20,000 nt of DNA from an uncultured virus (IMG/VR IMGVR_UViG_3300006888_000001) (taxonomy: Duplodnaviria > Heunggongvirae > Uroviricota > Caudoviricetes). The stretch lies in IMG/VR virus record IMGVR_UViG_3300006888_000001, one strand, 5' to 3'. The translations under genes were made by a program, and so were the position numbers. The notes under the pieces were generated by a model. The model was given only the letters and a program-made list of their open reading frames with translations. It searched no databases and had not been told where the DNA came from. This document shows positions 1 to 19,668 of the stretch, in pieces (position 1 is the stretch's first letter; every line of letters begins with the position of its first letter).

Positions 1-1
1 C

Positions 2-130
2 ATCGTCGCTCATGACCTCTACAATCACGAGGGTCTGACAGGGGATGGCATAGCCGAAGCCTTTCAGGAGTTCGCCGCACAGGAGCAATTCAGTTTTTTT
101 CGCTTCGCCCCTTCGACAGTGACCGCTTAG
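2..130 (+). CDS. 3' end of an N6-adenine DNA methylase (HsdM-like or RM fusion subunit), partial; starts upstream of the window
   Basis: Frame 2 is open from the window start and reads IVAHDLYNHEGLTGDGIAEAFQEFAAQEQFSFFRFAPSTVTA*, with TAG at 128-130. The 'HDL.NH.G....GIAEAF.EFA..E..SFF' tail resembles C-termini of methylases that precede RxDAxY/F-type S subunits (from recall). It lies directly before a specificity subunit. Confidence 0.7.
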   Translation: MVAHDLYNHEGLTGDGIAEAFQEFAAQEQFSFFRFAPSTVTA

Positions 131-155
131 GCGCACTGTTGGAGGGGCTTGAAGC
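81..155 (+). promoter_or_regulatory. Putative programmed -1 ribosomal frameshift signal (internal SD, T_TTT_TTT heptamer, 3' stem-loop)
   Basis: AGGAG at 81-85. T7 at 94-100 is phased as X XXY YYZ in the methylase frame. A 6-nt spacer follows, then a 15-bp stem (107-121 with 134-148, two G-U pairs). The -1 frame is open and continuous with the S-subunit ORF. Confidence 0.75.
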
Positions 156-1536
156 AACTATAGCAAAATTATCGCAGCTTGAAAGGACATCGCGCATAGA
201 CGCAGAGTTCTTTAAACGGAGTTTTCTCCGCTCCGAGGCATTTATTAAAAAGTGTCAATGCAAAAGCGTCGATCAACTTACGCATGTCTCGGATGGTAAC
301 CATTTTTCGATTAGCGAAGACTTTGTTGACAATGGAATTCCATATTATCGTGGGCAAGATGTTACAAATCGATTCTTCATCGAGACATCCGCGCCAATCC
401 ACATAACTTATGAAGCATATGATCGAAAATACATGCGTAGGTCTTACCTCAAGCGAGGGGATGTTCTCTTATCAATCATTGGCACTATTGGCGAGTTAAG
501 CCTTGTTGCATCGGATAAACCAGCGACCTGTTCGTGCAAGTTGGCTATACTTCGACCACGCAAAATTACACCTGAGTACTTGGCGGTCTTCCTGCGCTCT
601 GAACATGGGCAAAACCAGATTGAACGGCTTACCCGTGGTGCGGTTCAGAAGGGTTTGATCCTCGAGGACATGGATCAGTTGTGGGTGCCGCAGGTATCGT
701 CAGAGTTCGAGAAGCGCATCACATATACTGTGCTTACGGCCCGCGACAAGCAAGAAGTCTCTGGCAGGGAGTTGATTAAGGCCGAAGAAATCCTATTATC
801 GGCCTTGGGGCTAAAGGGTTGGAAGCCACCGGAACCGCTTAGCTACACAGCCCGCGCTAGCGACGCCTTCGCCGCCGGACGTTGGGATGCGCAGTATTTC
901 CGTCCTTTGTTCGCCGAGGTCGAAAAGCGTCTTTCCGCTACGGGCAAGGCTGTTGCATTGGGTGCGATTCTCGATATCAACAGCCGTGGCCAACAACCAC
1001 TTTATGCGGACGAAGGATTGCCAGTCGTCAACTCTAAGCACGTCCGCACCAATAACGTATTGCTCGACAATGACAATCGCCGCGCCGTGGAAGCGGGCTC
1101 CCCCCTAATCATCAAAAAGGGCGATGTTCTGTTGAATGGAACAGGAGTCGGCACGATTGGCCGAGCCGCGGCCTATCTGCATGAGCAACAAGCGTTGCCC
1201 GACAACCATGTGACTGTCCTTCGCTCTGCACTTGTCGATCCTATATACCTTGCCGTGTTCCTTAATAGCCAGCTTGGCCAGTTGCAGATCGAGCGGCACA
1301 TCAAGGGTTCATCTGGCCAGATCGAACTCTATCCCGACGATATTGCGAAGGTGGTATTTTGGAACGCACCCGATCATGTGCAGGCAAAAGTCCGTAATGC
1401 CGTCTTGTCAGCTTTCAATCAAGAACGTCGCGCACAAGAACTGCTCGAAGGTGCCAAGCGCGCCGTCGAAATAGCCATTGAAGGCGGCGAACCTGCCGCG
1501 CTGGCCTTCCTTGATGCTGTAGAGGAGTCAAACTGA
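139..1536 (+). CDS. hsdS: Restriction-modification specificity subunit (two TRDs, HsdS / type IIB S-like); the frame is open back to 16 and is probably entered by frameshift
   Basis: Two repeated halves start RIDAEFF and RWDAQYF. Each half has TRD-like segments (LKRGDVLLSIIGTIG; IKKGDVLLNGTGVGTIGR; YLAVFLRS..GQ.QIER; YLAVFLNS..GQ.QIER) and a helical spacer. The only nearby start is a TTG. Confidence 0.85.
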   Translation: MEGLEATIAKLSQLERTSRIDAEFFKRSFLRSEAFIKKCQCKSVDQLTHVSDGNHFSISEDFVDNGIPYYRGQDVTNRFFIETSAPIHITYEAYDRKYMRRSYLKRGDVLLSIIGTIGELSLVASDKPATCSCKLAILRPRKITPEYLAVFLRSEHGQNQIERLTRGAVQKGLILEDMDQLWVPQVSSEFEKRITYTVLTARDKQEVSGRELIKAEEILLSALGLKGWKPPEPLSYTARASDAFAAGRWDAQYFRPLFAEVEKRLSATGKAVALGAILDINSRGQQPLYADEGLPVVNSKHVRTNNVLLDNDNRRAVEAGSPLIIKKGDVLLNGTGVGTIGRAAAYLHEQQALPDNHVTVLRSALVDPIYLAVFLNSQLGQLQIERHIKGSSGQIELYPDDIAKVVFWNAPDHVQAKVRNAVLSAFNQERRAQELLEGAKRAVEIAIEGGEPAALAFLDAVEESN

Positions 1537-2333
1537 TGGCCCTTCCCCCGCACGCGCAGGAATGGATGGGCAAGGCCGAGATCGACTACATCGGTCCCTT
1601 TGTGAAGGCATGGGCCGCGTTCAACGCATGGTATCGTCATGCCAGCGGGCAAGCAACCGAACGCGCCATGCTCAAATTCGCGATTCGTGATCACAATAGC
1701 CATCTGCGTCGTCATCTCCTGCCCCTTCTGACCAACGGTAACGGCACAGCAGAAGCGGAGCGGTTGAAGCTGGCGATATGCGACCTGCAACAAAAGCTCG
1801 ACGCCATTCATTTCGAGGTGACGCCCAAAGGACGACGTGAGCGGGTTTCGCTGCGCGAGGTCTGCATCAATCCGCCGGTCAACTGGAACGGCGATCATTT
1901 GGAAAAAAACAGGCACAGCTACACGGTGACAAAGATACAGGGTGGTCAGTATCAGATCACAGTCACATCATTGCAGACACAGCGGGTGCGCTTCCAGCAT
2001 ATTCAAGCAGGCTACGATCCGGCAGAAATCTATACGCTTCCTGATTTCAATAACAAGTTGTCTGAAGCTCAGCGCATAATTCTTCGACAGTTTTACGACA
2101 CATGCAATCCACGCCCAATGACGGATCTTGTTCAAGGCGGTGGCCCGGCGCTTGAAATCTCGACCATGCAGTTCCAATGCAGGGCCGAAGACCTGTTGGC
2201 TGGCTTGGTCGAGACGCTTTACGCCATGCGCAACGCCCTGCTGCACGGCGAAGTCGATCCCGACGAACAGGTGCTTGCCTGCTACGAACCCGCCTATCGG
2301 GTCGTCATGTGCTTCCTTAAGTCAATCGGGTAG
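1536..2333 (+). CDS. HEPN-domain protein (Apea-like), putative RNase effector
   Basis: C-terminal LYAMRNALLHGE carries the HEPN RxxxxH motif. The N-terminal FVKAWAAFNAWY helix is typical of Apea-like HEPNs. TGATG overlap with the hsdS stop. Confidence 0.7.
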   Translation: MALPPHAQEWMGKAEIDYIGPFVKAWAAFNAWYRHASGQATERAMLKFAIRDHNSHLRRHLLPLLTNGNGTAEAERLKLAICDLQQKLDAIHFEVTPKGRRERVSLREVCINPPVNWNGDHLEKNRHSYTVTKIQGGQYQITVTSLQTQRVRFQHIQAGYDPAEIYTLPDFNNKLSEAQRIILRQFYDTCNPRPMTDLVQGGGPALEISTMQFQCRAEDLLAGLVETLYAMRNALLHGEVDPDEQVLACYEPAYRVVMCFLKSIG

Positions 2334-4149: not shown

Positions 4150-4611
4150 ATGAAGGTGCTTGGAATTCGAACTGCGCCGAAGCAGTTGAGATTTGCATTG
4201 TTGGAAATGGACGGAACTGACATTAAATTCCTTAACCAAGACGCTGAAAATCTGATCAAGGTGCCCGCTAGTGTGACAGAGGTCGAAGACATTGTTCATT
4301 GGCAGAAATCGGAGATTGACAGAATACTCAGGCAAAATCAGGACATCGATTTGGTTGCGATTAAGACGAGCGAATATGCTGGAAATGAAACCAAATTAAC
4401 TCGCTTGGCTTCGTATCTTGACGCCGCTGTTTTGCTGGCCGCTAAAGATGCCAACATCACAGTCTGCACCCGTGTATACAGCCAAATCGGTACCAAAAGA
4501 GCAAACGTCAAGGAACACGCTGAGTCTAGAGTTGGTGCTACGGAAAAGTATTGGAACGAACAAATTGCCGACGCGATTATGGTGGCTTGGGCTGTCAGGG
4601 AAAAAGCCTAG
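4150..4611 (+). CDS. RNase H / RuvC-YqgF-like fold protein with substituted catalytic residues (153 aa)
   Basis: GAGGT RBS at 4141-4145 and ATG at 4150. MKVLGIR (cf. RuvC MxILGID), DLVAIK (cf. D.vaiE) and a C-terminal IADAIMVA helix (cf. ADAlAiA). Confidence 0.6.
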   Translation: MKVLGIRTAPKQLRFALLEMDGTDIKFLNQDAENLIKVPASVTEVEDIVHWQKSEIDRILRQNQDIDLVAIKTSEYAGNETKLTRLASYLDAAVLLAAKDANITVCTRVYSQIGTKRANVKEHAESRVGATEKYWNEQIADAIMVAWAVREKA

Positions 4612-5678
4612 TGTCGGCGCCGAAATTTAATGCAGGAGATAGGCTGTATAAGTATCAGCTAAAGCATCACATTGGTGGTGGTCATTTCGGCGAAGTTTGG
4701 CTCGCGCATGATCTCACTTTAGCTAGGGATGTTGCCATCAAGATTCTCGATGAAAATATGGCTTCTGTGGCGGAGAACCTGAACGAGGCAAAAGTCGGAA
4801 ATAGGCTTGAACACCCGAATGTTATCCACGTTCACTACGCGGACGTTGTCAGAACCCCCTCTGGAAATGTTGTAGCGATTGCTATGGATTTCCACTCAAA
4901 TGGCTGTGCGACTACACAGGTGAATTCATCTAACTTTCTACCAATGACAGAGGCGATTCGAATAACAATCGATATTCTCAGGGGGCTTGAGTACCTTCAT
5001 GAATCCGGCCTTTTTCACAACGACATTAAGCCTTCTAATATTCTTATTGGTCCACGAGGAGAAGGAATCCTCACGGATTATGGAATTTCTTGCGCATCGC
5101 CAAGTTTAAGTCCAGTGAAAGCACCAAATGTCTACATCCTTCACGCAGCGCCGGAAACCATTGCCACATGCAACATCACTCTATCGACTGACATATACCA
5201 AGTTGGTCTAACATTATTCAGATTGTTGAACGGTGTTGCAACTATTCGTGATTTACTTAACAGTGTTGGGGAAAAACAGTTTGAAGACCTAAAAGCAAAA
5301 GGAAAGGTGCCAAGAAAACAGGACTACTTACCATTTCCATCATCTGTAGCTAGAGTTATCGCAAAAGCCACTAAACCCAACCCAACTGACAGATTTCAAT
5401 CAGCACTGGGAATGCGGCGAGCACTCGAAGCAATTTCTGTAACTGGATATTGGACTACCGACGCCACGGGAGATTATCTTGGCGTTTTGGGTAACCAAAC
5501 ATTTCGTTTTTCTCAGGAAAAGACCAAGAGCGGATACAGGTTCAATGCGTTTCGTACGAGACTGGAGAGCGGTAATGAAACTCGCGTGGCGAAGATGTCT
5601 GGTTCAAGGCTAAATAATGATGAAATCAAGAAACATAAGAAAGATTTTATGCTTTCGGTGGTAAACGGTGAGTTGTGA
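4611..5678 (+). CDS. Hanks-type Ser/Thr protein kinase with a short C-terminal extra domain (355 aa from GTG 4611)
   Basis: Motifs GGGHFGEV, VAIK, alphaC Glu (NEA), HNDIKPSN, DYG, APE and DIYQVG. The GTG start overlaps the TAG stop of the upstream gene. No TM segment. Confidence 0.9.
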   Translation: MSAPKFNAGDRLYKYQLKHHIGGGHFGEVWLAHDLTLARDVAIKILDENMASVAENLNEAKVGNRLEHPNVIHVHYADVVRTPSGNVVAIAMDFHSNGCATTQVNSSNFLPMTEAIRITIDILRGLEYLHESGLFHNDIKPSNILIGPRGEGILTDYGISCASPSLSPVKAPNVYILHAAPETIATCNITLSTDIYQVGLTLFRLLNGVATIRDLLNSVGEKQFEDLKAKGKVPRKQDYLPFPSSVARVIAKATKPNPTDRFQSALGMRRALEAISVTGYWTTDATGDYLGVLGNQTFRFSQEKTKSGYRFNAFRTRLESGNETRVAKMSGSRLNNDEIKKHKKDFMLSVVNGEL

Positions 5679-6528: not shown

Positions 6529-6993
6529 TTATTTGGAAATTATAGCCAAAACAGCCTTATTTATCATATCTTTACTTGCTTCATTTTCCTTCATTACTTC
6601 GCAAACTTTGTCGATTAGCCGAAGCTGCGCTTCGCAAGACTTCGCATCATCATATGTATTGATCGTAAGCTCGGGGAGATCTTCAGGCTGCGATCCGTCA
6701 ATGTTTTGGGCGTTGGTCAGGCGCAGGTGTCGCGCTGTTGTCTGCGATGCGTCCGGGAGGAACATGTTCCCGGTGCCGTAGAAAAGCCAATTCATATCAA
6801 TGCCATAAGTTTGGCCAAGCTGCTGAATATGCGAGAACTTTGGTTCTGAATTTCCGTCCGTCTTCATGAAACTGTGCATGGATTGCCGGCTGATTCCGGC
6901 GGCCTTGGCCATGTCGGTCTGCTTTATACTGAGCTCGCGCTGAATGAGCAGAAACTGTTCTGAACATTTTACGCTTTCCATGCTGTTTGACAT
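6529..6993 (-). CDS. XRE/CI-like HTH repressor
   Basis: IKQTDMAKAAGISRQSMHSF HTH and a 'GIDMNWLFYGTGNMF' motif typical of phage repressors. ATG 6993 has an AGGGTGA RBS. No S24 peptidase domain seen. Confidence 0.8.
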   Translation of the reverse strand: MSNSMESVKCSEQFLLIQRELSIKQTDMAKAAGISRQSMHSFMKTDGNSEPKFSHIQQLGQTYGIDMNWLFYGTGNMFLPDASQTTARHLRLTNAQNIDGSQPEDLPELTINTYDDAKSCEAQLRLIDKVCEVMKENEASKDMINKAVLAIISK

Positions 6994-7008
6994 ACTGTTC
7001 ACCCTTAT

Positions 7009-7029
7009 GGACAAAAAATTTAATTGTCC
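7009..7029. promoter_or_regulatory. Candidate operator palindrome between divergent cI-like and cro-like genes
   Basis: GGACAA-N9-TTGTCC in the 77-bp AT-rich divergent intergenic gap. Confidence 0.4.
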
Positions 7030-11960: not shown

Positions 11961-12154
11961 GGAGAACCTGCTTGATATGGAGATAGAGCGATGGAGAATT
12001 TGTTACATGGAAAACGGTAGACATCAAACGACAAATTCTTCTTGTGTCATACGGTAGTTATACCCTAAAAACACCCGTGGATTTCCGGCCTGCCCGGTCT
12101 TTTATTCAACCTGTGTGCTGGCTCACTTGCCGCACCTCTTCATTTTGGGACACC

Positions 12155-13609
12155 ATGTTCGAACAAGCATTCAAGAATATCGACGACGCGCTCTGGAAAG
12201 AGAGCGGCTGCACTACGGAACTCGACTACACGGAGCAGACATCCTGGCTCCTTTTTCTCAAATACCTCGACGCGCTGGAACAGGACAAGGCCACGGAAGC
12301 GGCCTTGGAAGGACGGGAGTATTCGTTCATCCTTGATGCGCCCTATCGCTGGGAGGTGTGGGCCGCGCCAAAGAACGGCGGTGGCAAGCTGGACCACAAC
12401 AAGGCCATGACCGGGGATGATCTGGTCGATTTCGTGGACCGCAAGCTGTTCCCCTATCTGCACGGTTTCAAGCAGCGGGCCACCGGGCCGGATACCATCG
12501 AATACAAGATCGGCGAGATTTTCGGCGAGATCAAAAACAAGATCCGCAGCGGCTACACCCTGCGCGACATTATCGACCACGTGGACGAACTGCGTTTCGG
12601 CTCCCAGAGCGAAAAACACGAACTTTCCGCCCTGTACGAAGAGAAGATCAAGCGCATGGGCAACGCGGGCCGAAATGGCGGGGAATACTACACGCCGCGC
12701 CCGCTCATCCGGGCCATGATCCAGGTCACGCAGCCCAAGATAGGCGAGCGCATCTATGACGGCGCCTGCGGCTCGGCGGGATTTCTGTGCGAATCCTTCG
12801 CCTACCTCTCGGCCAAGCCAAACCTGACCACGGACGACCTCAAAACCCTTCAGGAACGCACTTTCTACGGCAAAGAAAAGAAGTCCCTCGCCTACGTCAT
12901 CGCCATCATGAACATGATCCTGCATGGCATCGAGGCCCCGAATATCGTCCACACCAACACCCTGAGCGAAAACCTGGCCGACATCCAGGACAAGGACCGC
13001 TTCGACGTGATCCTGGCCAACCCGCCCTTCGGCGGCAAGGAGCGCAAAGAGGTCCAGCAGAACTTCCCCATCCGCACGGGCGAGACGGCCTTCCTCTTCC
13101 TGCAGCACTTCATCAAAATGCTCAAAGCTGGCGGCCGCGCGGCCGTGGTCATCAAGAACACGTTCCTGTCCAACTCGGACAATGCTTCCGTCTCTCTACG
13201 CAAGCTCCTGCTCGAAAACTGCGACCTGCACACGGTGCTCGATTGCCCCGGCGGCACGTTCCAGGGCGCGGGAGTGAAAACCGTGGTCCTCTTCTTCGAA
13301 AAGGGCCGCCCTACACGCAATGTCTGGTTCTACCAACTCAATCCAGGCCGCAGCATGGGCAAGACCACGGCTTTGAACGATGCCGACTTGGTCGAGTTTG
13401 TAGAACTGCAGAAAAGCAGGGCCGACTCGCCCAAAAGTTGGAGCGTGGACGTTTCCCAGATTGGCCATGCGAGCTTTGACCTCTCAGTCAAGAATCCGAA
13501 CAACGGCGAGGAAGTAAAGCACCGCAGCCCGCAGGAGATCATGGACGAAATCGTGGCGCTGGACGTCGAGAGCGCGGAAGTGCTGGCCAACATTAAGGCA
13601 CTACTATGA
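12155..13609 (+). CDS. hsdM: Type I R-M methyltransferase subunit (484 aa)
   Basis: MFEQAFKNIDD start, GEYYTPR, IYDGACGSAGFL (motif I) and LANPPFGG (motif IV). Confidence 0.95.
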   Translation: MFEQAFKNIDDALWKESGCTTELDYTEQTSWLLFLKYLDALEQDKATEAALEGREYSFILDAPYRWEVWAAPKNGGGKLDHNKAMTGDDLVDFVDRKLFPYLHGFKQRATGPDTIEYKIGEIFGEIKNKIRSGYTLRDIIDHVDELRFGSQSEKHELSALYEEKIKRMGNAGRNGGEYYTPRPLIRAMIQVTQPKIGERIYDGACGSAGFLCESFAYLSAKPNLTTDDLKTLQERTFYGKEKKSLAYVIAIMNMILHGIEAPNIVHTNTLSENLADIQDKDRFDVILANPPFGGKERKEVQQNFPIRTGETAFLFLQHFIKMLKAGGRAAVVIKNTFLSNSDNASVSLRKLLLENCDLHTVLDCPGGTFQGAGVKTVVLFFEKGRPTRNVWFYQLNPGRSMGKTTALNDADLVEFVELQKSRADSPKSWSVDVSQIGHASFDLSVKNPNNGEEVKHRSPQEIMDEIVALDVESAEVLANIKALL

Positions 13610-14820
13610 AGCAGGGGTGGCAGACCAAAAAACTGAGCGAAGTCTCCTACGTGTTCGACGGACCGCACGCGACACCGAAGACCGTTGATTCTGGTCCGAT
13701 ATTTCTGGGGGTAGGCGCGCTTCAAGATGGCGTCATCAATCTCAGAGAAACGCGGCATGTTACCGAAGAGGACTTCAAGCAATGGACTCGACGAGTTTGC
13801 CCACAGCAAAACGATGTAGTGTTTTCTTATGAAACCAGAATAGGCCAAGCTGCAATTATACCTGAAGGTTTAGATTGTTGCCTTGGTCGACGTATGGGCT
13901 TAGTTCGTTTCAAAGATAACACGGTTGATCCTCAATTCTTTTTATACCAGTATATTTCTCCTCAGTTTCAAAATTTTCTTGAAACTAAGACAATACATGG
14001 TGCGACTGTTGATCGTATTTCGATTAAAGAATTCCCTTGTTTTTCAATAACTGTGCCTCCGCTCCCCGAACAGCAACGAATCGTCGCCATCCTCGACGAA
14101 GCTTTTGCGGGCCTCGCCACTGCCAAAACCAACGTCGAAAAGAACCTCCATAATGCCCGCGCCCTCTTCGAAAGCCATCTCCACGCCGTCTTCACCCAGC
14201 GCGGTCCAGGATGGATGGAGAAACAATTCGAGGAGTTGATCGAGAGCAACATCATAGGGCTTACCAAAAGCAGTCGAGATCAAGACGAAGACAAATCTTT
14301 CCCATATGTGAAAATGAACAATATCACGCGTGACAATCGGTTTGACTTCTCCAATTTCACATGTGTTGACGCTACTACCGAAGAAGTGAGCAAATTTTCG
14401 CTCATGGATGGCGACTTTCTGTTTAACACGAGAAACAGCCATGAATTGGTCGGAAAATCCTGCATCTATGAATCCGACTCGAATGATATCGTATTGTATA
14501 ATAACAATATCATGCGAGTCAGATTCCGGCGCGGCGTTGATGCCAGATTTGTCCTTTTTGCGTTCTCGTTCAAAGACGTTGCTGATGAACTGAATGCATT
14601 GAAAAGCGGCACGACCAATGTTTCGGCCATCTACTTTAAAAATTTGAAGTCACTGACTATTCCCATTCCTTCAATGACGGAACAAAAGATGATCGCCGCG
14701 AGGCTGGAATCGCTCGTGGCAGAAACCCAACGCCTCGCCGTAATCTACGAGCGGAAGCTCACCGGACTGGATGCGTTGAAAAAATCCCTACTGCACCAAA
14801 CCTTCAGCGGCCAACTCTGA
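13606..14820 (+). CDS. hsdS: Type I R-M specificity subunit
   Basis: ATGA overlap with hsdM. Two TRDs with conserved spacers [17 protein letters not shown] and [16 protein letters not shown]...[11 protein letters not shown]. Confidence 0.95.
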
Positions 14821-14846
14821 TCACCACACCTCGGAGCAACAATACA

Positions 14847-16643
14847 ATGGCCACGCAACGCTACTCAGTAACCCCTCACCCAATCGAAACTCTCCTGACC
14901 TGGGTGAAATCCGGCGAAATCGCCATCCCCGAAATCCAGCGTCCCTTTGTCTGGGAAGCGACCAAAGTTCGCAACCTGCTTGATTCCTTGTATCAGGGCT
15001 ATCCGGTGGGCTATCTGATCGCCTGGCGCAATCCCAAGGTCAAACTGAAGGACGGCTCCATCTCCATTGGCAAGCGCATCCTCATCGACGGCCAGCAGCG
15101 AGTCACGGCGCTCATGGCGGCCCTTCTTGGCCAGGAAGTGCTGACTGACGACTACGAGACGCGGCAGATCCAGATCGCCTTCAATCCACAAAACGAGACA
15201 TTCGAAGTAGCCAACCCGGCCATCCGCAAAGATTCGGCTTGGCTGCCGGATGTGGCGCAGGTTTTTGCCACGAACGCCAGCATTTTCCAGATGGTCGAGG
15301 CCTATTGTGCGGTCAATCCCGATGTCTCGAAAGACGATGTCTACAAGGTGATCGAAAAGCTGCGCGGCATCATCCACAACCATGTGGGCATCATCGAGTT
15401 GGCGGAAGATCTGGATATCGAGACAGTGACCGAAATCTTCATCCGCGTGAACTCGGCCGGAGCCCCTCTGTCGCAAGCCGACTTCGCCATGTCCAAGATC
15501 GCGGTGAACGAGACCTACGGTGGCAACATGCTGCGCAAGGCCATCGACTATTTCTGCCATCTCGCCGTGGCCCCTGAATTTCTTTCCAAGATCAAGAAGG
15601 GCGACAAGGCCTTCATCGAATCCGAATTCTTCGACAAGATGAAGTGGGTCGCCGACGTCAATGACGACATCTATGATCCGACCTACACCGACATGCTGCG
15701 CGTCGCCTTCACCTCGGAATTCGGACGCGGGAAACTGCAAGACCTCGTGGCCCTGCTCTCGGGTCGCAATTTCGAGACCAAGCAATACGAGGAAGCCATT
15801 GCGGAAGAGTCGTTTGCAAAGCTCAAAAACGGCATTCACGCGTTCATCAACAAGACTCACTTCGACCGCATCGTCATGATCCTGCGGTCGGCGGGTTTCA
15901 TCGTCAGCAACCTGGTCGGCAGCCAGAACGCCGTCAATTTCGCCTATATCCTCTATCTGCGCGGCCGCTCGGAAAAAGTGCCTGCCGACGAACTGGAACG
16001 CCTGGTGCGCCGCTGGTTCGTCATGTCCATGCTGAGCAAGCGTTACAGCAGCGCCCCGGAATCGACCATCGACTTCGATATCCGTCAGATTGATAACAGA
16101 GGTGTGGTTGCGTATGCGGATGCGGTGATTCCCAACGAACTGCCGGACAGTTTCTGGACAGGCATGCTGCCGCAGTTCCTTGATACGTCTTCAAGCATCA
16201 GCCCCTATTTTCGCTGCTATCAGGCCGCGCAGATCAAACTCGGGGACCGGGGCTTTCTTTCCCGCGACATCACCGTGGCGGACCTGCTTCTGAACCGGGC
16301 CGACGTACATCACGTCTATCCCAAAAAGCATCTCAAGGATGCTGGATTGTCACGCGGGAGCTACAACCAGATCGCCAACTTCGTGATCGCCCAGAATGAG
16401 ATCAACATCGCAATCGGTGCCAAGGCCCCTGCCGTCTATTTTGCGGAACTGGCTGAACAAGCCCAAGGCGGTATGAAGAAATACGGGGGCATCACGGACA
16501 AAGACGTTTTGCATGCAAATCTGCGCATGAACTGCATTCCGGACGGCCTGCTCACTGGCGCAATCACGGAATACAGTGATTTTCTCGAAGAGCGGCGCAA
16601 ATTGATGGCCTTGAAAATGAAAGATTGGTTCGAGGTGTTGTGA
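14847..16643 (+). CDS. GmrSD-like restriction protein (DUF262 plus C-terminal HNH-like/DUF1524 domain)
   Basis: [17 protein letters not shown] and IFIRVNSAG (DUF262). DVHHVYPK...NQIANF.....INI (His-Me finger-like). Confidence 0.85.
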
Positions 16644-16774
16644 TGATTCAGGACCGGGACATTGCCTTGATCGAGGAGCTTCGCGCCCAGCCCGACGAAT
16701 CGGCTTGGCTGGAGTTCAAGAGAGACAACGATGACTCGGAGATATTCGACAAATGCTACGCATTAAAGCCCTAG
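16643..16774 (+). pseudogene. Truncated 5' remnant of an AlbA_2/Schlafen-domain gene (43 aa)
   Basis: TGATG coupling to the upstream gene. [43 protein letters not shown] contains the E..WLEFK motif and then breaks into AT-rich DNA. Confidence 0.7.
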
Positions 16775-16823
16775 GTACTCGATATATGTTTCGCGGAAGT
16801 AATACTATTTTAAGGAAATTTTC

Positions 16824-17165
16824 ATGGAAAAAGATTCATACATAGGAATAGGATTCATTATTTTCGGACTATTGATTGGCGGCGTTGGCGTGGCTACAGC
16901 AGGAGTTGGAATCGGTATACCAGTTATCCCAATAGGTGTTTACCTCGTATGGAGAGGATTTTCTCGAAAAAAATTCACAGACAATCGAAGTGATCCTTTT
17001 TGGTTTGAAAAGTCTTCAAAAGGAAAGATTGGGATTGGAATACTGTTAATTATAATCGGCATTGCTACAAGTGCACTGGTTATAGGAATACCCATAGCAT
17101 TGTACGGAGCATATTTGATCTATACAGCATTAAAATCGAGTAAGTCACCCCTCTTTCGCCAATAA
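16824..17165 (+). CDS. Small Gly/Ile-rich multi-pass membrane protein with internal duplication
   Basis: AAGGA RBS. Two similar hydrophobic halves, each IGIG...AT....GIP....G.YL. Confidence 0.7.
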   Translation: MEKDSYIGIGFIIFGLLIGGVGVATAGVGIGIPVIPIGVYLVWRGFSRKKFTDNRSDPFWFEKSSKGKIGIGILLIIIGIATSALVIGIPIALYGAYLIYTALKSSKSPLFRQ

Positions 17166-17223
17166 ATCGACTAGCATTATCAGCATCCTAAGTGGGTAAA
17201 ATCAGCGCACTAGCGAGACCCAA

Positions 17224-19668
17224 ATGAACGAAGCCGAAACCCGCCTCCTGCATATCGACCCGGCCCTCAAGGCCGCAGGCTGGGGTGTGGTCGAAGGCAG
17301 TCGCATCCGGCCCGAGTATCCCATTACCTTGGGCCGCATCCAGGGTGTGGGACGGCGGGCCAAGGCTCTCACGGCCGATTACGTCCTAGAGTACCGCAAC
17401 ACGAAGCTGGCCGTGGTGGAGGCCAAGGCCTGGGACAAGGCGCTGACCGAAGGGCTGGCCCAGGCCAAGGATTACGCCGACAAGTTGGCCGTACGCTTCA
17501 CGTACTCCACCAACGGACAGGGCATCTATGCCGTGGACATGGAAACGGGCAGCGAGGCCGAAGTTTCCGCGTATCCCACACCGGAAGAACTCTGGGATCG
17601 GACCTTCGTCGTGCAAAACCTCTGGCGGGACCGCTTCAAGGCCGTGCCCTTCGAGGACCGGGGCGGTTACTTTCAGGGCCGATATTACCAAGACATCGCC
17701 GTGGAGCGGGTTCTGTCCGCCATTGCAGACGGCCGGGACCGCATCCTGCTGACGCTGGCCACAGGTACGGGCAAGACCTTCATCGCCTTCCAGATCGCCT
17801 GGAAGCTCTTCCACAGTCGCTGGAACCTGCAGGATTGGCGACAGGACGGCGAACCGAGCCGCAGGCCGCGCATCCTGTTCCTGGCCGACCGCAACATTCT
17901 GGCGGATCAGGCCTACAACGCCTTTTCCGCCTTTGCCGAGGACACCTTGGTGCGCATCGCGCCGGACGAAATCAGAAAGAAAGGAAAGGTGCCCAAGAAC
18001 GGCAATATCTTCTTCACCATCTTCCAGACCTTCATGTGCGTGCCGCCAACAGGCGAAGAACCGAGCCCCTATTTCGGGGACTACCCGCCCGATTTCTTCG
18101 ACTTCATCGTCATCGACGAGTGCCATCGCGGCGGCGCCAAGGACGAAAGCAGATGGCGGGGCATTCTGGAATACTTCGCCCCTGCAGTGCAGCTTGGCCT
18201 GACGGCTACCCCCAAACGGGACGTCAACGCCGACACGTACGCCTATTTTGGCGATCCAGTCTTCATCTATTCACTCAAAGACGGCATCAACGACGGATTC
18301 CTCACGCCGTTCCGCGTCAAGCAGATCGCCACCACTTTGGACGAATATGTGTACACGTCCGACGACACGCTGATCGAAGGCGAAATCGAGGACGGAAAGA
18401 TTTACGGTGAGGCGGATTTCAACTGCATCATTGAAATCAGGGCGCGGGAAAAGAAACGGGTCGAAATTTTCATGGCCCTCATTGACCAGCGCGAGAAAAC
18501 CCTGGTCTTTTGCGCGAACCAGGACCACGCCCTGGCCGTGCGCGATCTGGTCAACCAGCTCAAGTCCTACGGGGACCCGAACTACTGCCAGCGTGTCACG
18601 GCCGATGACGGGGTGCTCGGCGAACAGCACTTGCGCGCCTTTCAGGACAACGAAAAGACTATTCCGACGGTTCTGACCACTTCACAGAAGCTGTCCACCG
18701 GAGTGGATGCCCGCAATATCCGCAACATCGTTCTCATGCGGCCCATCAATTCCATGATCGAATTCAAGCAGATCATTGGACGCGGCACACGTCTGTACGA
18801 TGGCAAGGACTATTTCACTATTTACGACTTCGTCGAAGCTCACCATCACTTCAATGATCCGGAATGGGACGGCGAACCCGTGGAGCCTGACGCATGCGCG
18901 GTCTGCGGTAGTTATCCCTGCGTCTGTATCAAGGAACCCGTGGGTCCATGCCTGATATGCGGCCAATCTCCATGCACATGCCCCAGGCCGCCCTGCCCGG
19001 AGTGTGGGCAACGGCCATGCGCCTGCCCTAAGGAGCCATGCCCCAAATGCGGGCAGCATCCATGCAAATGCGTTAAAAGAGCCAGAATCAAACTGTCCGA
19101 CGGCAAGGAACGCACCATCCAACACATGGTGGCCACAAGCTTCTGGCACCCGGATGGAACGCCGATGTCCGCCGCGCAGTTTATGGAAGCGCTCTTCGGA
19201 CGATTGCCGGAATTCTTCCAGGACGAAGACGAGCTGCGCAGCATCTGGAGCGTTCCGAACACCCGCCGCAGACTCCTAGACGGTCTGGCGGAGAAAGGCT
19301 TTGGCAAGGAACAACTCGCTGAAATGCAAAAGATCATCGACGCGGAAAAATGCGACATCTTCGATGTGCTGGCTCATGTAGCCTACGCCGATGTGCCGTT
19401 GACGCGGGAAGAAAGAGCGACCAAGGCCAAAATCAGCATTCAGCAGCGTTTCAACAGCAATCAGCAGGCTTTCCTGGACTTTGTCCTTGGCCACTACGTG
19501 AATGTCGGCGTGGAAGAACTGGACCAGACGAAGCTGACCCCTCTTTTACGGCTGCGCTACGGCAACTCGTTGAAGGATGCCATGGCGGATCTGGGCCGGG
19601 CGGAAGAGATCAACAAAATATTTGTCGGGTTTCAGAGATATTTGTATCAGGCGGGAATACCGGCTTGA
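17224..19668 (+). CDS. hsdR: Type I R-M restriction subunit (EcoEI/EcoAI-like, DEAD-type helicase)
   Basis: ADYVL...VVEAK nuclease motif, LATGTGKT, DECHR, LGLTATP and QIIGRGTR. EcoEI_R_C-like tail. Confidence 0.95.
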   Translation: MNEAETRLLHIDPALKAAGWGVVEGSRIRPEYPITLGRIQGVGRRAKALTADYVLEYRNTKLAVVEAKAWDKALTEGLAQAKDYADKLAVRFTYSTNGQGIYAVDMETGSEAEVSAYPTPEELWDRTFVVQNLWRDRFKAVPFEDRGGYFQGRYYQDIAVERVLSAIADGRDRILLTLATGTGKTFIAFQIAWKLFHSRWNLQDWRQDGEPSRRPRILFLADRNILADQAYNAFSAFAEDTLVRIAPDEIRKKGKVPKNGNIFFTIFQTFMCVPPTGEEPSPYFGDYPPDFFDFIVIDECHRGGAKDESRWRGILEYFAPAVQLGLTATPKRDVNADTYAYFGDPVFIYSLKDGINDGFLTPFRVKQIATTLDEYVYTSDDTLIEGEIEDGKIYGEADFNCIIEIRAREKKRVEIFMALIDQREKTLVFCANQDHALAVRDLVNQLKSYGDPNYCQRVTADDGVLGEQHLRAFQDNEKTIPTVLTTSQKLSTGVDARNIRNIVLMRPINSMIEFKQIIGRGTRLYDGKDYFTIYDFVEAHHHFNDPEWDGEPVEPDACAVCGSYPCVCIKEPVGPCLICGQSPCTCPRPPCPECGQRPCACPKEPCPKCGQHPCKCVKRARIKLSDGKERTIQHMVATSFWHPDGTPMSAAQFMEALFGRLPEFFQDEDELRSIWSVPNTRRRLLDGLAEKGFGKEQLAEMQKIIDAEKCDIFDVLAHVAYADVPLTREERATKAKISIQQRFNSNQQAFLDFVLGHYVNVGVEELDQTKLTPLLRLRYGNSLKDAMADLGRAEEINKIFVGFQRYLYQAGIPA
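18895..19071 (+). repeat. Four tandem CxxCGxxPCxC peptide repeats within HsdR
   Basis: CAVCGSYPCVC, CLICGQSPCTC, CPECGQRPCAC and CPKCGQHPCKC, joined by Pro-rich linkers. Confidence 0.9.

Follow-up and report, generated by a model that had tools for sequence, protein, structure and literature searches.

Probable programmed −1 ribosomal frameshifting at the junction of a nuclease–methylase gene and its specificity subunit gene, in a viral DNA stretch and in relatives from several phyla

INTRODUCTION

In Escherichia coli, the dnaX gene gives rise to tau and gamma in a fixed ratio through −1 ribosomal frameshifting at a phased heptamer, with a Shine-Dalgarno (SD)-like element 5′ of it and a hairpin ~6 nucleotides (nt) 3′ of it. 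Here we describe a cassette with a heptamer and hairpin of this kind, with an SD-like element as a possible stimulator and with two predicted products from one message, at the junction between a nuclease–methylase (RM) gene and the gene of its specificity (S) subunit. The junction lies at the beginning of a stretch of 20,000 nt from an uncultured virus of the Caudoviricetes (IMG/VR record IMGVR_UViG_3300006888_000001), hereafter the window, whose first letter is position 1. A previous sequence-only reading of the window had proposed that a single message makes a free methylase chain and a methylase–specificity fusion by recoding, and the alignment of homologous junctions that it suggested as a check supports this proposal, since the relatives preserve the heptamer and the −1 relation, together with a hairpin that shows compensatory changes. 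We consider it likely that programmed −1 ribosomal frameshifting makes both RM and an RM–S fusion at this locus.

Described systems of two further kinds bear on this junction. According to the excerpts of Sharma et al. (2014, PMC4066793) on which we draw, H_HH.U_UU.Y and V_VV.A_AA.R are among the most efficient −1 motifs in E. coli, and both U_UU.U_UU.C and G_GG.A_AA.A are found among the heptamers of insertion sequences. Concerning restriction–modification enzymes, BsaXI is an (RM)2S heterotrimer in the sections of PMC11997821 available to us, while the corresponding sections of Roberts et al. (2012, PMC3510504) report that the C-terminus of EcoKI M adjoins the N-terminus of S, and that an engineered EcoKI HsdM–HsdS fusion (‘Type IMS’) is functional in vivo, added free M being needed in vitro.

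RESULTS

The elements of the RM/S junction, all of them on the + strand, are the following:

2..130, +: 3′ end of the RM gene (0 frame, frame 2), 42 codons plus TAG, from the translation; the remainder of the gene lies outside the window
81..85, +: SD-like AGGAG, a possible 5′ stimulator, 8 nt 5′ of the heptamer
94..100, +: slippery heptamer T TTT TTT, in the X XXY YYZ phase of the RM frame, following AGT
101..106, +: spacer CGCTTC, 6 nt, from the fold and the alignment of cassettes
107..148, +: candidate stimulatory hairpin, with outer stem 107–121/134–148, inner stem 124–126/131–133 and loop 127–130
139..141, +: TTG, the sole canonical start candidate for a free S, inside the 3′ arm of the stem
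94..1536, +: S subunit coding region (Methylase_S), −1 frame, with predicted entry by slippage at 94–100 (FFSLRPFDSDRLGALLEGLEA...) and its stop at 1534–1536

Around the slip site the RM frame reads CAA TTC AGT TTT TTT CGC, with the C-terminal translation ...QFSFFRFAPSTVTA*. Its last 42 codons translate as ...AEAFQEFAAQEQFSFFRFAPSTVTA up to the stop TAG 128–130, and this tail (FAAQEQFSFFR.APSTVTA*) is nearly identical to that of a 675-residue (aa) open reading frame (ORF) in the related locus L001. Frame 1, the −1 frame, translates as ...IQFFSLRPFDSDRLGALLEGLEA... and is open from 16 to 1536, the first ATG, GTG or TTG in it being TTG 139. On re-reading, the T7 run, the RM stop, the extent of the open frame and the position of AGGAG all proved to be correctly placed in the sequence-only reading. 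Folding of positions 101–153 likewise reproduced the 15-bp outer stem with two G-U pairs, the buried TTG and the RM stop within the loop (UUAG, 127–130) that had been described from the letters, and added an inner stem of 3 bp; the fold reaches −32.5 kcal/mol, compared with −16.5 ± 3.2 kcal/mol in 200 dinucleotide shuffles, none of which folds as well (z −5.04). The extension of this stem by GCTTC/GAAGC that had also been suggested was not confirmed, being absent from an RNAalifold prediction on 51 aligned cassettes reaching window position 156. Such an extension would abolish the spacer; the single-sequence fold ended at 153 and was thus unable to form it.

Relatives were fetched with an alignment of 28 S homologues (A1), taking one genome per species. 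This yielded 601 pattern matches, 383 of them confirmed by tblastn, and the best 80 of the 383 were analysed; 64 of these 80 loci, with an S match starting at residues 1–5 and with upstream DNA, were tabulated, the other 16 being partial or truncated. The same cassette as in the window, that is heptamer, 6-nt spacer, stem and −1 relation, is found in 50 of the 64 loci, where the heptamer starts exactly 45 nt 5′ of the codon aligned to TTG 139 and a long upstream ORF (~650–810 aa) lies in the +1 frame relative to S. Judging from record titles, the cassette loci span at least eight phyla, the taxa that bear them including Alpha-, Beta- and Gammaproteobacteria, Bacteroidota (Pedobacter, Mucilaginibacter), Verrucomicrobiota, delta-proteobacterial lineages, Chlorobaculum, Armatimonas, Tichowtungia and Victivallales. 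It is because of this conservation, and not on the strength of the single sequence, that a chance origin of the cassette in the window is excluded. The remaining tabulated loci comprise ten in-frame RM–S fusions, one ordinary split pair with an ATGA overlap (L016) and three aberrant cases: L008 with T6 and an altered frame, L020 with an extra base past the stop and L037 with one TTT codon fewer. When the 16 untabulated loci were searched with a regular expression for the cassette, only L049 was recovered, plus an irrelevant site in L074. Six of the 16 were inspected individually, and four of these six could be read: L049 is a fused gene, as are L023 and L062, and L024 consists of separate genes (TGATG).

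The pattern used for scanning metagenomes prescribed only how the run begins and the outer arms of the stem, and left the spacing free by ±2; as the arms were demanded, the resulting 69 matches test the spacing and the frame, not the stem. Canonical spacing and the same −1 relation were present in 66 of them, and a T7 or T8 run in 64. The recurrence of T7 in independent assemblies shows that this run is not an assembly error, so that the T8 misreading for which the sequence-only reading had allowed is not borne out. Three metagenome contigs of identical local sequence (L112, L140, L141) carry a T8-type cassette with T9, in which RM and S are in one frame (…GFFLKRPFDEARY…); this T9 may be an in-frame allele that occurs in nature, the product of phase variation or an error in the homopolymer.

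Taken together, the window and the 50 loci make up a set of 51 cassettes that aligns without gaps (A2). The heptamer, at the same place and in the same phase throughout, is TTTTTTT in 44 cassettes, TTTTTTC in four and GGGAAAA in three, the latter from Verrucomicrobia (L018, L025, L031) whose RM frame reads CCG GGA AAA at the same distance from the same stem. In ten loci the run is T8, the extra T being the first spacer base and giving T TTT TTT TGA or TAA, with the RM stop abutting the heptamer; T7 and T8 differ, thus, by substitution and not by an indel, and the frame relation is therefore kept. RM ends directly past the heptamer in 11 cassettes, one codon on in 27 and nine codons on, as in the window, in 13. 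On the 5′ side, an SD-like core of at least 4 nt lies within 20 nt of the heptamer in 45 of the 51 cassettes, and the Glu codon at this site is GAG in 35 of 44 loci, versus 20.4 expected from each RM gene's own usage in a comparison uncorrected for kinship. The SD-like AGGAG pointed out in the sequence-only reading is present as stated; its role as a stimulator is supported only in part, since the same bases encode a conserved K/Q-E.

In the alignment the stem takes the form of a 19-pair helix (columns 16–34 with 39–57), where 80.5% of 969 cells pair, compared with 37–63% when the partners are slid. Cells changed on both sides amount to 50, against 24.7 expected, and the covariation score is 0.219, against 0.171 after shuffling; neither value is reached in any of 500 shuffles, although this test overstates the significance of the stem, given that its two arms lie in coding sequence and that the cassettes share ancestry. 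Compensatory changes are found at pair 20/53 (CG 42, UA 6, UG 2, GC 1), mostly synonymous on both arms (CCC to CCT with GAG to GAA) and accompanied in L066 by an amino-acid change (CCG with AAC), while pair 28/45 appears as AU in 23 cassettes and as GC in 14, and pair 29/44 takes six pair types. For the inner five pairs, which depend on the register, a fixed structure gives weak support; for the outer part of the helix, RNAalifold independently predicts 13 pairs. All 12 cassette loci whose folds were compared with shuffles gave a hairpin with z between −4.4 and −7.0, whereas the split-gene control L016 gave none (z +1.09). Median fold energies were −31.4 kcal/mol for the 51 cassettes and −32.5 kcal/mol for 60 distinct metagenome cassettes.

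Whether S-frame codons upstream of TTG are under selection could be judged in the 38 loci where RM ends 0–1 codon past the heptamer, by comparing the three frames over the next ten codons:

Loci with a stop in the ten codons: S frame, 0 of 38; RM frame, 1 of 38; third frame, 30 of 38
Mean pairwise BLOSUM62 per residue: S frame, 3.58; RM frame, 1.42; third frame, 1.30

In these loci the entropy of the S frame amounts to 0.66 at the first, 0.59 at the second and 1.20 at the third codon position. The S-frame consensus, FF-S/L-x-x-P-F-D/N-x-x-R/K-Y/L-x-x-L-L-E/K-G-L-E, contains R/K exchanges for which all three bases of the codon must change (CGN to AAA), and the motif PF[DN]xx[RK][YL]xxLLxGLE recurs within in-frame fusions (as PFDAxKYxxLMDGLEA), in P0028 and P0034 and in the fused loci. 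Selection in the S frame, joined to the occurrence of the same motif in true fusions, argues that the S-frame peptide 5′ of TTG is made, and in most loci this peptide is, as far as the codons tell, reachable from the RM frame alone. Indeed, 39 of the 51 cassettes have no canonical start from the heptamer to the Pro codon, where a free S would retain the motif, and five (L002, L009, L047, L070, L079) lack any start up to and including the LL codons. The alternative for which the sequence-only reading had allowed, a proper S start in the homologues, is accordingly not what most of them show, as they lack a usable start 5′ of the conserved peptide. In 46 of the 51 cassettes, one of the two conserved Leu codons does offer a canonical start, with TTG at the codon of window position 139 in most relatives. 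This preference for TTG is explained by the pairing of its bases with the Phe-Asp/Asn codons of the 5′ arm (pairs 23/50, 24/49, 25/48); CTG at this place would mismatch an invariant A of that arm. Gene callers choose varied S starts across the relatives (MEGLEA, MSPFD, VLQFFSGRPF...), which we take as a sign of the missing start codon, and the public call for the S gene of the window (P0006, 318 aa) starts deep within the gene.

Fused relatives carry the cassette as well. The sequence AGT TTT TTT stands in phase in 11 fused loci, namely nine cyanobacteria, the Crenothrix locus L051 and L080. In all 11 the −1 frame meets TGA or TAA at once, and all 11 fold to a hairpin past the heptamer with −22.5 to −37.5 kcal/mol (seven of them by two methods), the first paired base lying 2–6 nt past the heptamer and, in six loci, exactly 6 nt. 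The cyanobacterial fused form has an unchanged 3′ arm, GATGGGCT, and a 5′ arm, AGCCCATC, that encodes another linker part (SPSV), the junction being 13 nt longer; a single spacer base sets L080 apart from the split form. In L051, from a Crenothrix metagenome-assembled genome (~2650–2700), a perfect 10-bp hairpin, GGCCTGTCAG...CTGACAGGCC, begins exactly 6 nt past T7 and is unrelated to the usual stem, and the stimulator appears from its sequence to have been replaced independently. Of the other fused genes, L062 carries T TTT TTC without a stop directly after it in the −1 frame, and L023 lacks a T run.

Regarding the identity of both genes, the domain layout of RM was read in relatives, the window holding only its last 42 residues. 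The ORFs 5′ of S in L001, L010, L058 and L041 have 675–793 aa and combine HSDR_N_2, a nuclease-type N-terminal domain, with N6_Mtase and Eco57I, and the best solved relative of the RM chain is RM.BsaXI, a type IIB enzyme (E 4.7e-20 across the methylase part). The S chain of the window has 465 aa with Methylase_S (Pfam), matches PADLOC Specificity_I PDLC03197 over its full length (453 bits) and displays in alignment A1 a two-half layout over the 465 aa, as for two target-recognition domains (TRDs). PADLOC labels the two chains as M and S of type I; the flanking ORFs scanned in L001, L010, L021 and L058 included no helicase-type R gene. The pair is described here as a BcgI/BsaXI-like nuclease–methylase chain plus an S chain, which may cleave as type IIB enzymes do, on both sides of a bipartite site and without a translocating HsdR. 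Given that the upstream gene in relatives is a nuclease–methylase fusion, the (RM)2S composition of BcgI/BsaXI fits better than plain type I M2S1, so that of the two forms in which a 2:1 stoichiometry had been invoked for this locus, the BcgI type stands and the type I form fits less well. Membership of the MADS system was considered and rejected, as the RM chain and S scored 314.3 and 116.7 bits with MAD2 and MAD5 (NCBIfam NF047738, NF047740), against curated cut-offs of 720 and 400.

A later S start served by GGAGG of the 3′ arm as its SD was discarded, the window having no start within 90 nt past TTG and the relatives none that is conserved; for ATT 88–90 as an S start behind AGGAG, the spacing is only 2 nt as judged by eye. 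A megablast search of window positions 1–1600 against a plasmid collection gave no match. In Rfam, positions 1–400 matched no frameshift-element model, the sole match being a chance one to mir-2072 (19.6 bits versus a gathering score of 100).

Downstream of S the window continues with a further ORF that has counterparts in the relatives:

1536..2333, +: ORF after S, 265 aa, overlapping the S stop (265–272 aa in relatives; L001, 7401–8198; L010, 7392–8210)

This ORF is 80% identical to its counterpart in L001 and 44% to that in L010, and had no match in Pfam, NCBIfam or PADLOC; we regard it as a probable third member of the operon, hitherto uncharacterised. In Verrucomicrobia, the S chains P0017 and P0029 (L018 region) bear a C-terminal extension of ~230 aa with PF20217, a domain of unknown function (DUF), and a comparison of the window ORF with the DUF6577-bearing S fusion P0017 revealed no similarity.

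Elsewhere in the window, a classical type I system occupies 12044–19668 (+), with hsdM at 12044–13609 and hsdS at 13606–14820, joined by an ATGA stop/start overlap; the same region holds a GmrSD-type gene (14847–16643) and hsdR (17224–19668; ResIII, EcoEI_R_C). The hsdM/hsdS junction offers a built-in contrast to the frameshift junction, and the type I system suggests a defence island. A Ser/Thr protein kinase gene at 4551–5678 (+; Pkinase, E 1e-34), whose best PADLOC matches are PD-T4-6 and mad6, with NCBIfam MAD6 under cut-off, may be a separate defence gene. A small ORF at 6529–7014 (−) has weak similarity, under cut-off, to phage RstR/DicA-type repressors (E 1.7e-4), which hints at a mobile or phage-related region around it.

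DISCUSSION

The anatomy of this junction, kept across phyla, leads us to propose the following course of translation. Ribosomes standing on the last RM Phe-Phe codons (UUU UUU in U UUU UUU, 94–100) would meet a hairpin of ~18 bp located 6 nt further on; a fraction of them would slip back by one base and read FFSLRPFD... into S, giving an RM–S fusion of ~1150 aa, while the remaining ribosomes would end at TAG 128–130 and release free RM. One free RM and one RM–S chain would add up to the (RM)2S composition, and the 2:1 subunit need of BsaXI/BcgI would give a reason for making two products. We infer the slip, its efficiency and the assembly of RM with RM–S from the features described above. In fused genes the default and the shifted product would be swapped, the slip giving the short chain, so that both layouts would yield the same two chains, an RM ending near ...SFF and RM–S.

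Several observations weigh against this proposal and lend themselves to other explanations. The RM gene of the window lies mostly outside it and the shifted product is deduced from sequence; the covariation of the stem is partly confounded, as far as the alignment allows one to judge, by its coding arms and by shared ancestry; and T7/T8 runs are prone to RNA-polymerase slippage and to replication indels, both the T9 variant (three contigs) and the T6 of L008 having been seen. RNA polymerase could, in fact, add one U on T7/T8, and the edited mRNA would encode the same RM–S chain. With homopolymers of 7–8 T in 44 of the 51 cassettes and in most metagenome matches, and with UUUUUUU being rarer than expected in every frame, for which Sharma et al. 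(2014, PMC4066793, in the excerpts used) name transcriptional slippage or indels as a possible cause, such slippage may contribute on T7/T8, its product being identical. As the explanation of the whole family we regard it as improbable, since in seven of the 51 cassettes the site is T6C or GGGAAAA(A)G, a short run for a polymerase but a classical phased heptamer for a ribosome, and since a conserved covarying hairpin 5–6 nt 3′ has the geometry of a ribosomal stimulator. We know of no role for a hairpin 3′ of a transcriptional slippage run. The run may be seen, on the other hand, as a mutational hot spot, the locus being then a broken fusion gene (a true T8), an ON/OFF switch or an assembly error. 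T8 in the window would indeed give an in-frame fusion, an in-frame T9 variant and indels in L008 and L020 exist, and homopolymer switches are known in restriction–modification genes, as in the type III methyltransferases of Antonov (2013), to go by the portions of that work at hand. A −1 relation that stays constant through more than 110 independent loci of unrelated assemblies (50 from genomes, 66 of the 69 from metagenomes), the substitutional nature of the T7/T8 difference, the non-homopolymer heptamers at the same place and the selection on both the hairpin and the S-frame peptide make phase variation, decay or error extremely unlikely; regarding tract-length switching, the 64 loci contain one T-run indel (L008) against 50 canonical cassettes.

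A different objection dispenses with recoding altogether and has a free S started by translational coupling at TTG 139, or at the RM stop in relatives, with the hairpin masking the start until RM ribosomes open it. TTG 139 is a legal start at which the PADLOC S model begins, and the RM stop of the window type (13 of 51), placed in the loop 8 nt 5′ of it, means that termination–reinitiation could also give a free S. Besides the Leu-codon starts available in 46 of 51 cassettes, a start overlaps or adjoins the RM stop in the NTGA manner in 12 (8 TTGA, 3 ATGA, 1 GTGA), and some lineages may, on this pattern, make S separately as a free protein; moreover, truly split relatives exist (L016 with ATGA, L024 with TGATG), and ATGA is also the junction of the type I pair in the same window. 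As a general account, however, coupling is in our view very unlikely. Ten codons before TTG are under S-frame selection where the RM frame is already over, and they match the linker of the fusions; five loci offer no start whatsoever, and the choice of TTG is accounted for by its pairing with the F-D/N codons. RM ends before the stem in 38 of the 51 loci, and coupling leaves unexplained both the phased heptamers, GGGAAAA among them, and the presence of the cassette in fused genes. Programmed ribosomal frameshifting remains, for these reasons, the reading that we favour.

Should it be correct, its consequences would reach beyond this locus. A large multi-phylum family would be mis-annotated, its S genes having wrong or truncated starts; the active enzyme would contain a covalent RM–S chain, and a simple RNA module would set its 2:1 stoichiometry. 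The short list of cellular −1 frameshift genes would gain a widespread bacterial addition that is not a mobile element, and the natural ‘extend’ and ‘truncate’ versions of one cassette could be used for studying the evolution of frameshift efficiency, with a practical bearing on the expression of type IIB-like enzymes and on methylome prediction. We speculate, rather tentatively, that in split genes the slip makes RM–S and in fused genes RM, that the RM : RM–S ratio depends on slip efficiency and on neither gene dosage nor separate initiation, and that this efficiency could even act as a tunable switch between methylation- and cleavage-competent assembly states, for instance upon entry into a new host or under translation stress.

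Restriction–modification enzymes are among the best-studied bacterial proteins, yet frameshifting as a route to their subunits was not found in the literature searched. Our search returned no paper that reports a frameshift where RM and S genes meet. In Sharma et al. (2014, PMC4066793), neither ‘restriction’ nor ‘methylase’ occurs in the main text, and a single occurrence of ‘hsdS’ in that work may bear on priority. The part of the review by Atkins et al. (2016, PMC5009743) that was searched makes no mention of restriction-modification, restriction enzyme or restriction endonuclease, the main text and one supplement file of Antonov (2013) hold, in the portions at hand, only a phase-variation ‘DNA methylase’ cluster, and ‘frameshift’ has no occurrence in the available sections of the BsaXI paper (PMC11997821). 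The frameshift mechanism itself is known, while the gene family, the purpose of fusing subunits and the use of two polarities are absent from the literature searched.

Among described systems, the engineered EcoKI fusion is close in what it requires, a functional M–S chain plus extra free M being the same two-product requirement that we propose here; it differs in having been obtained by deleting a natural 1-nt overlap, and EcoKI itself relies on translational coupling, with no slippery site or hairpin (Roberts et al. 2012, PMC3510504, in the sections available). As in OrfA–OrfAB of IS3/IS911, where a heptamer and a 3′ structure are likewise found, the shift would fuse overlapping ORFs of which the downstream one lacks an efficient start of its own (PMC4066793, in the excerpts used), but there is no transposase here, and stimulation would fall to a long simple hairpin that encodes the beginning of S in its arms. 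BsaXI and BcgI share with this family an RM chain with an N-terminal PD-(D/E)xK-type domain and an N6-adenine methylase, together with a separate S with two TRDs; similarity to BsaXI is, however, confined to the methylase domain, and the PADLOC labels are those of type I M and S. MAD2 and MAD5 of MADS are the best NCBIfam matches of the RM chain and S, but the scores lie far under the cut-offs, and here RM is directly followed by S. With respect to dnaX, whose phased heptamer and 3′ hairpin, and possibly SD-like stimulator, have counterparts in the window, the heptamer is U UUU UUU instead of A AAA AAG, the gene family is that of restriction–modification and the shift of the window type would extend the protein instead of truncating it, whereas the fused relatives, with their heptamer and immediate −1 stop, would follow the logic of dnaX itself, in which the shift leads to the short chain.

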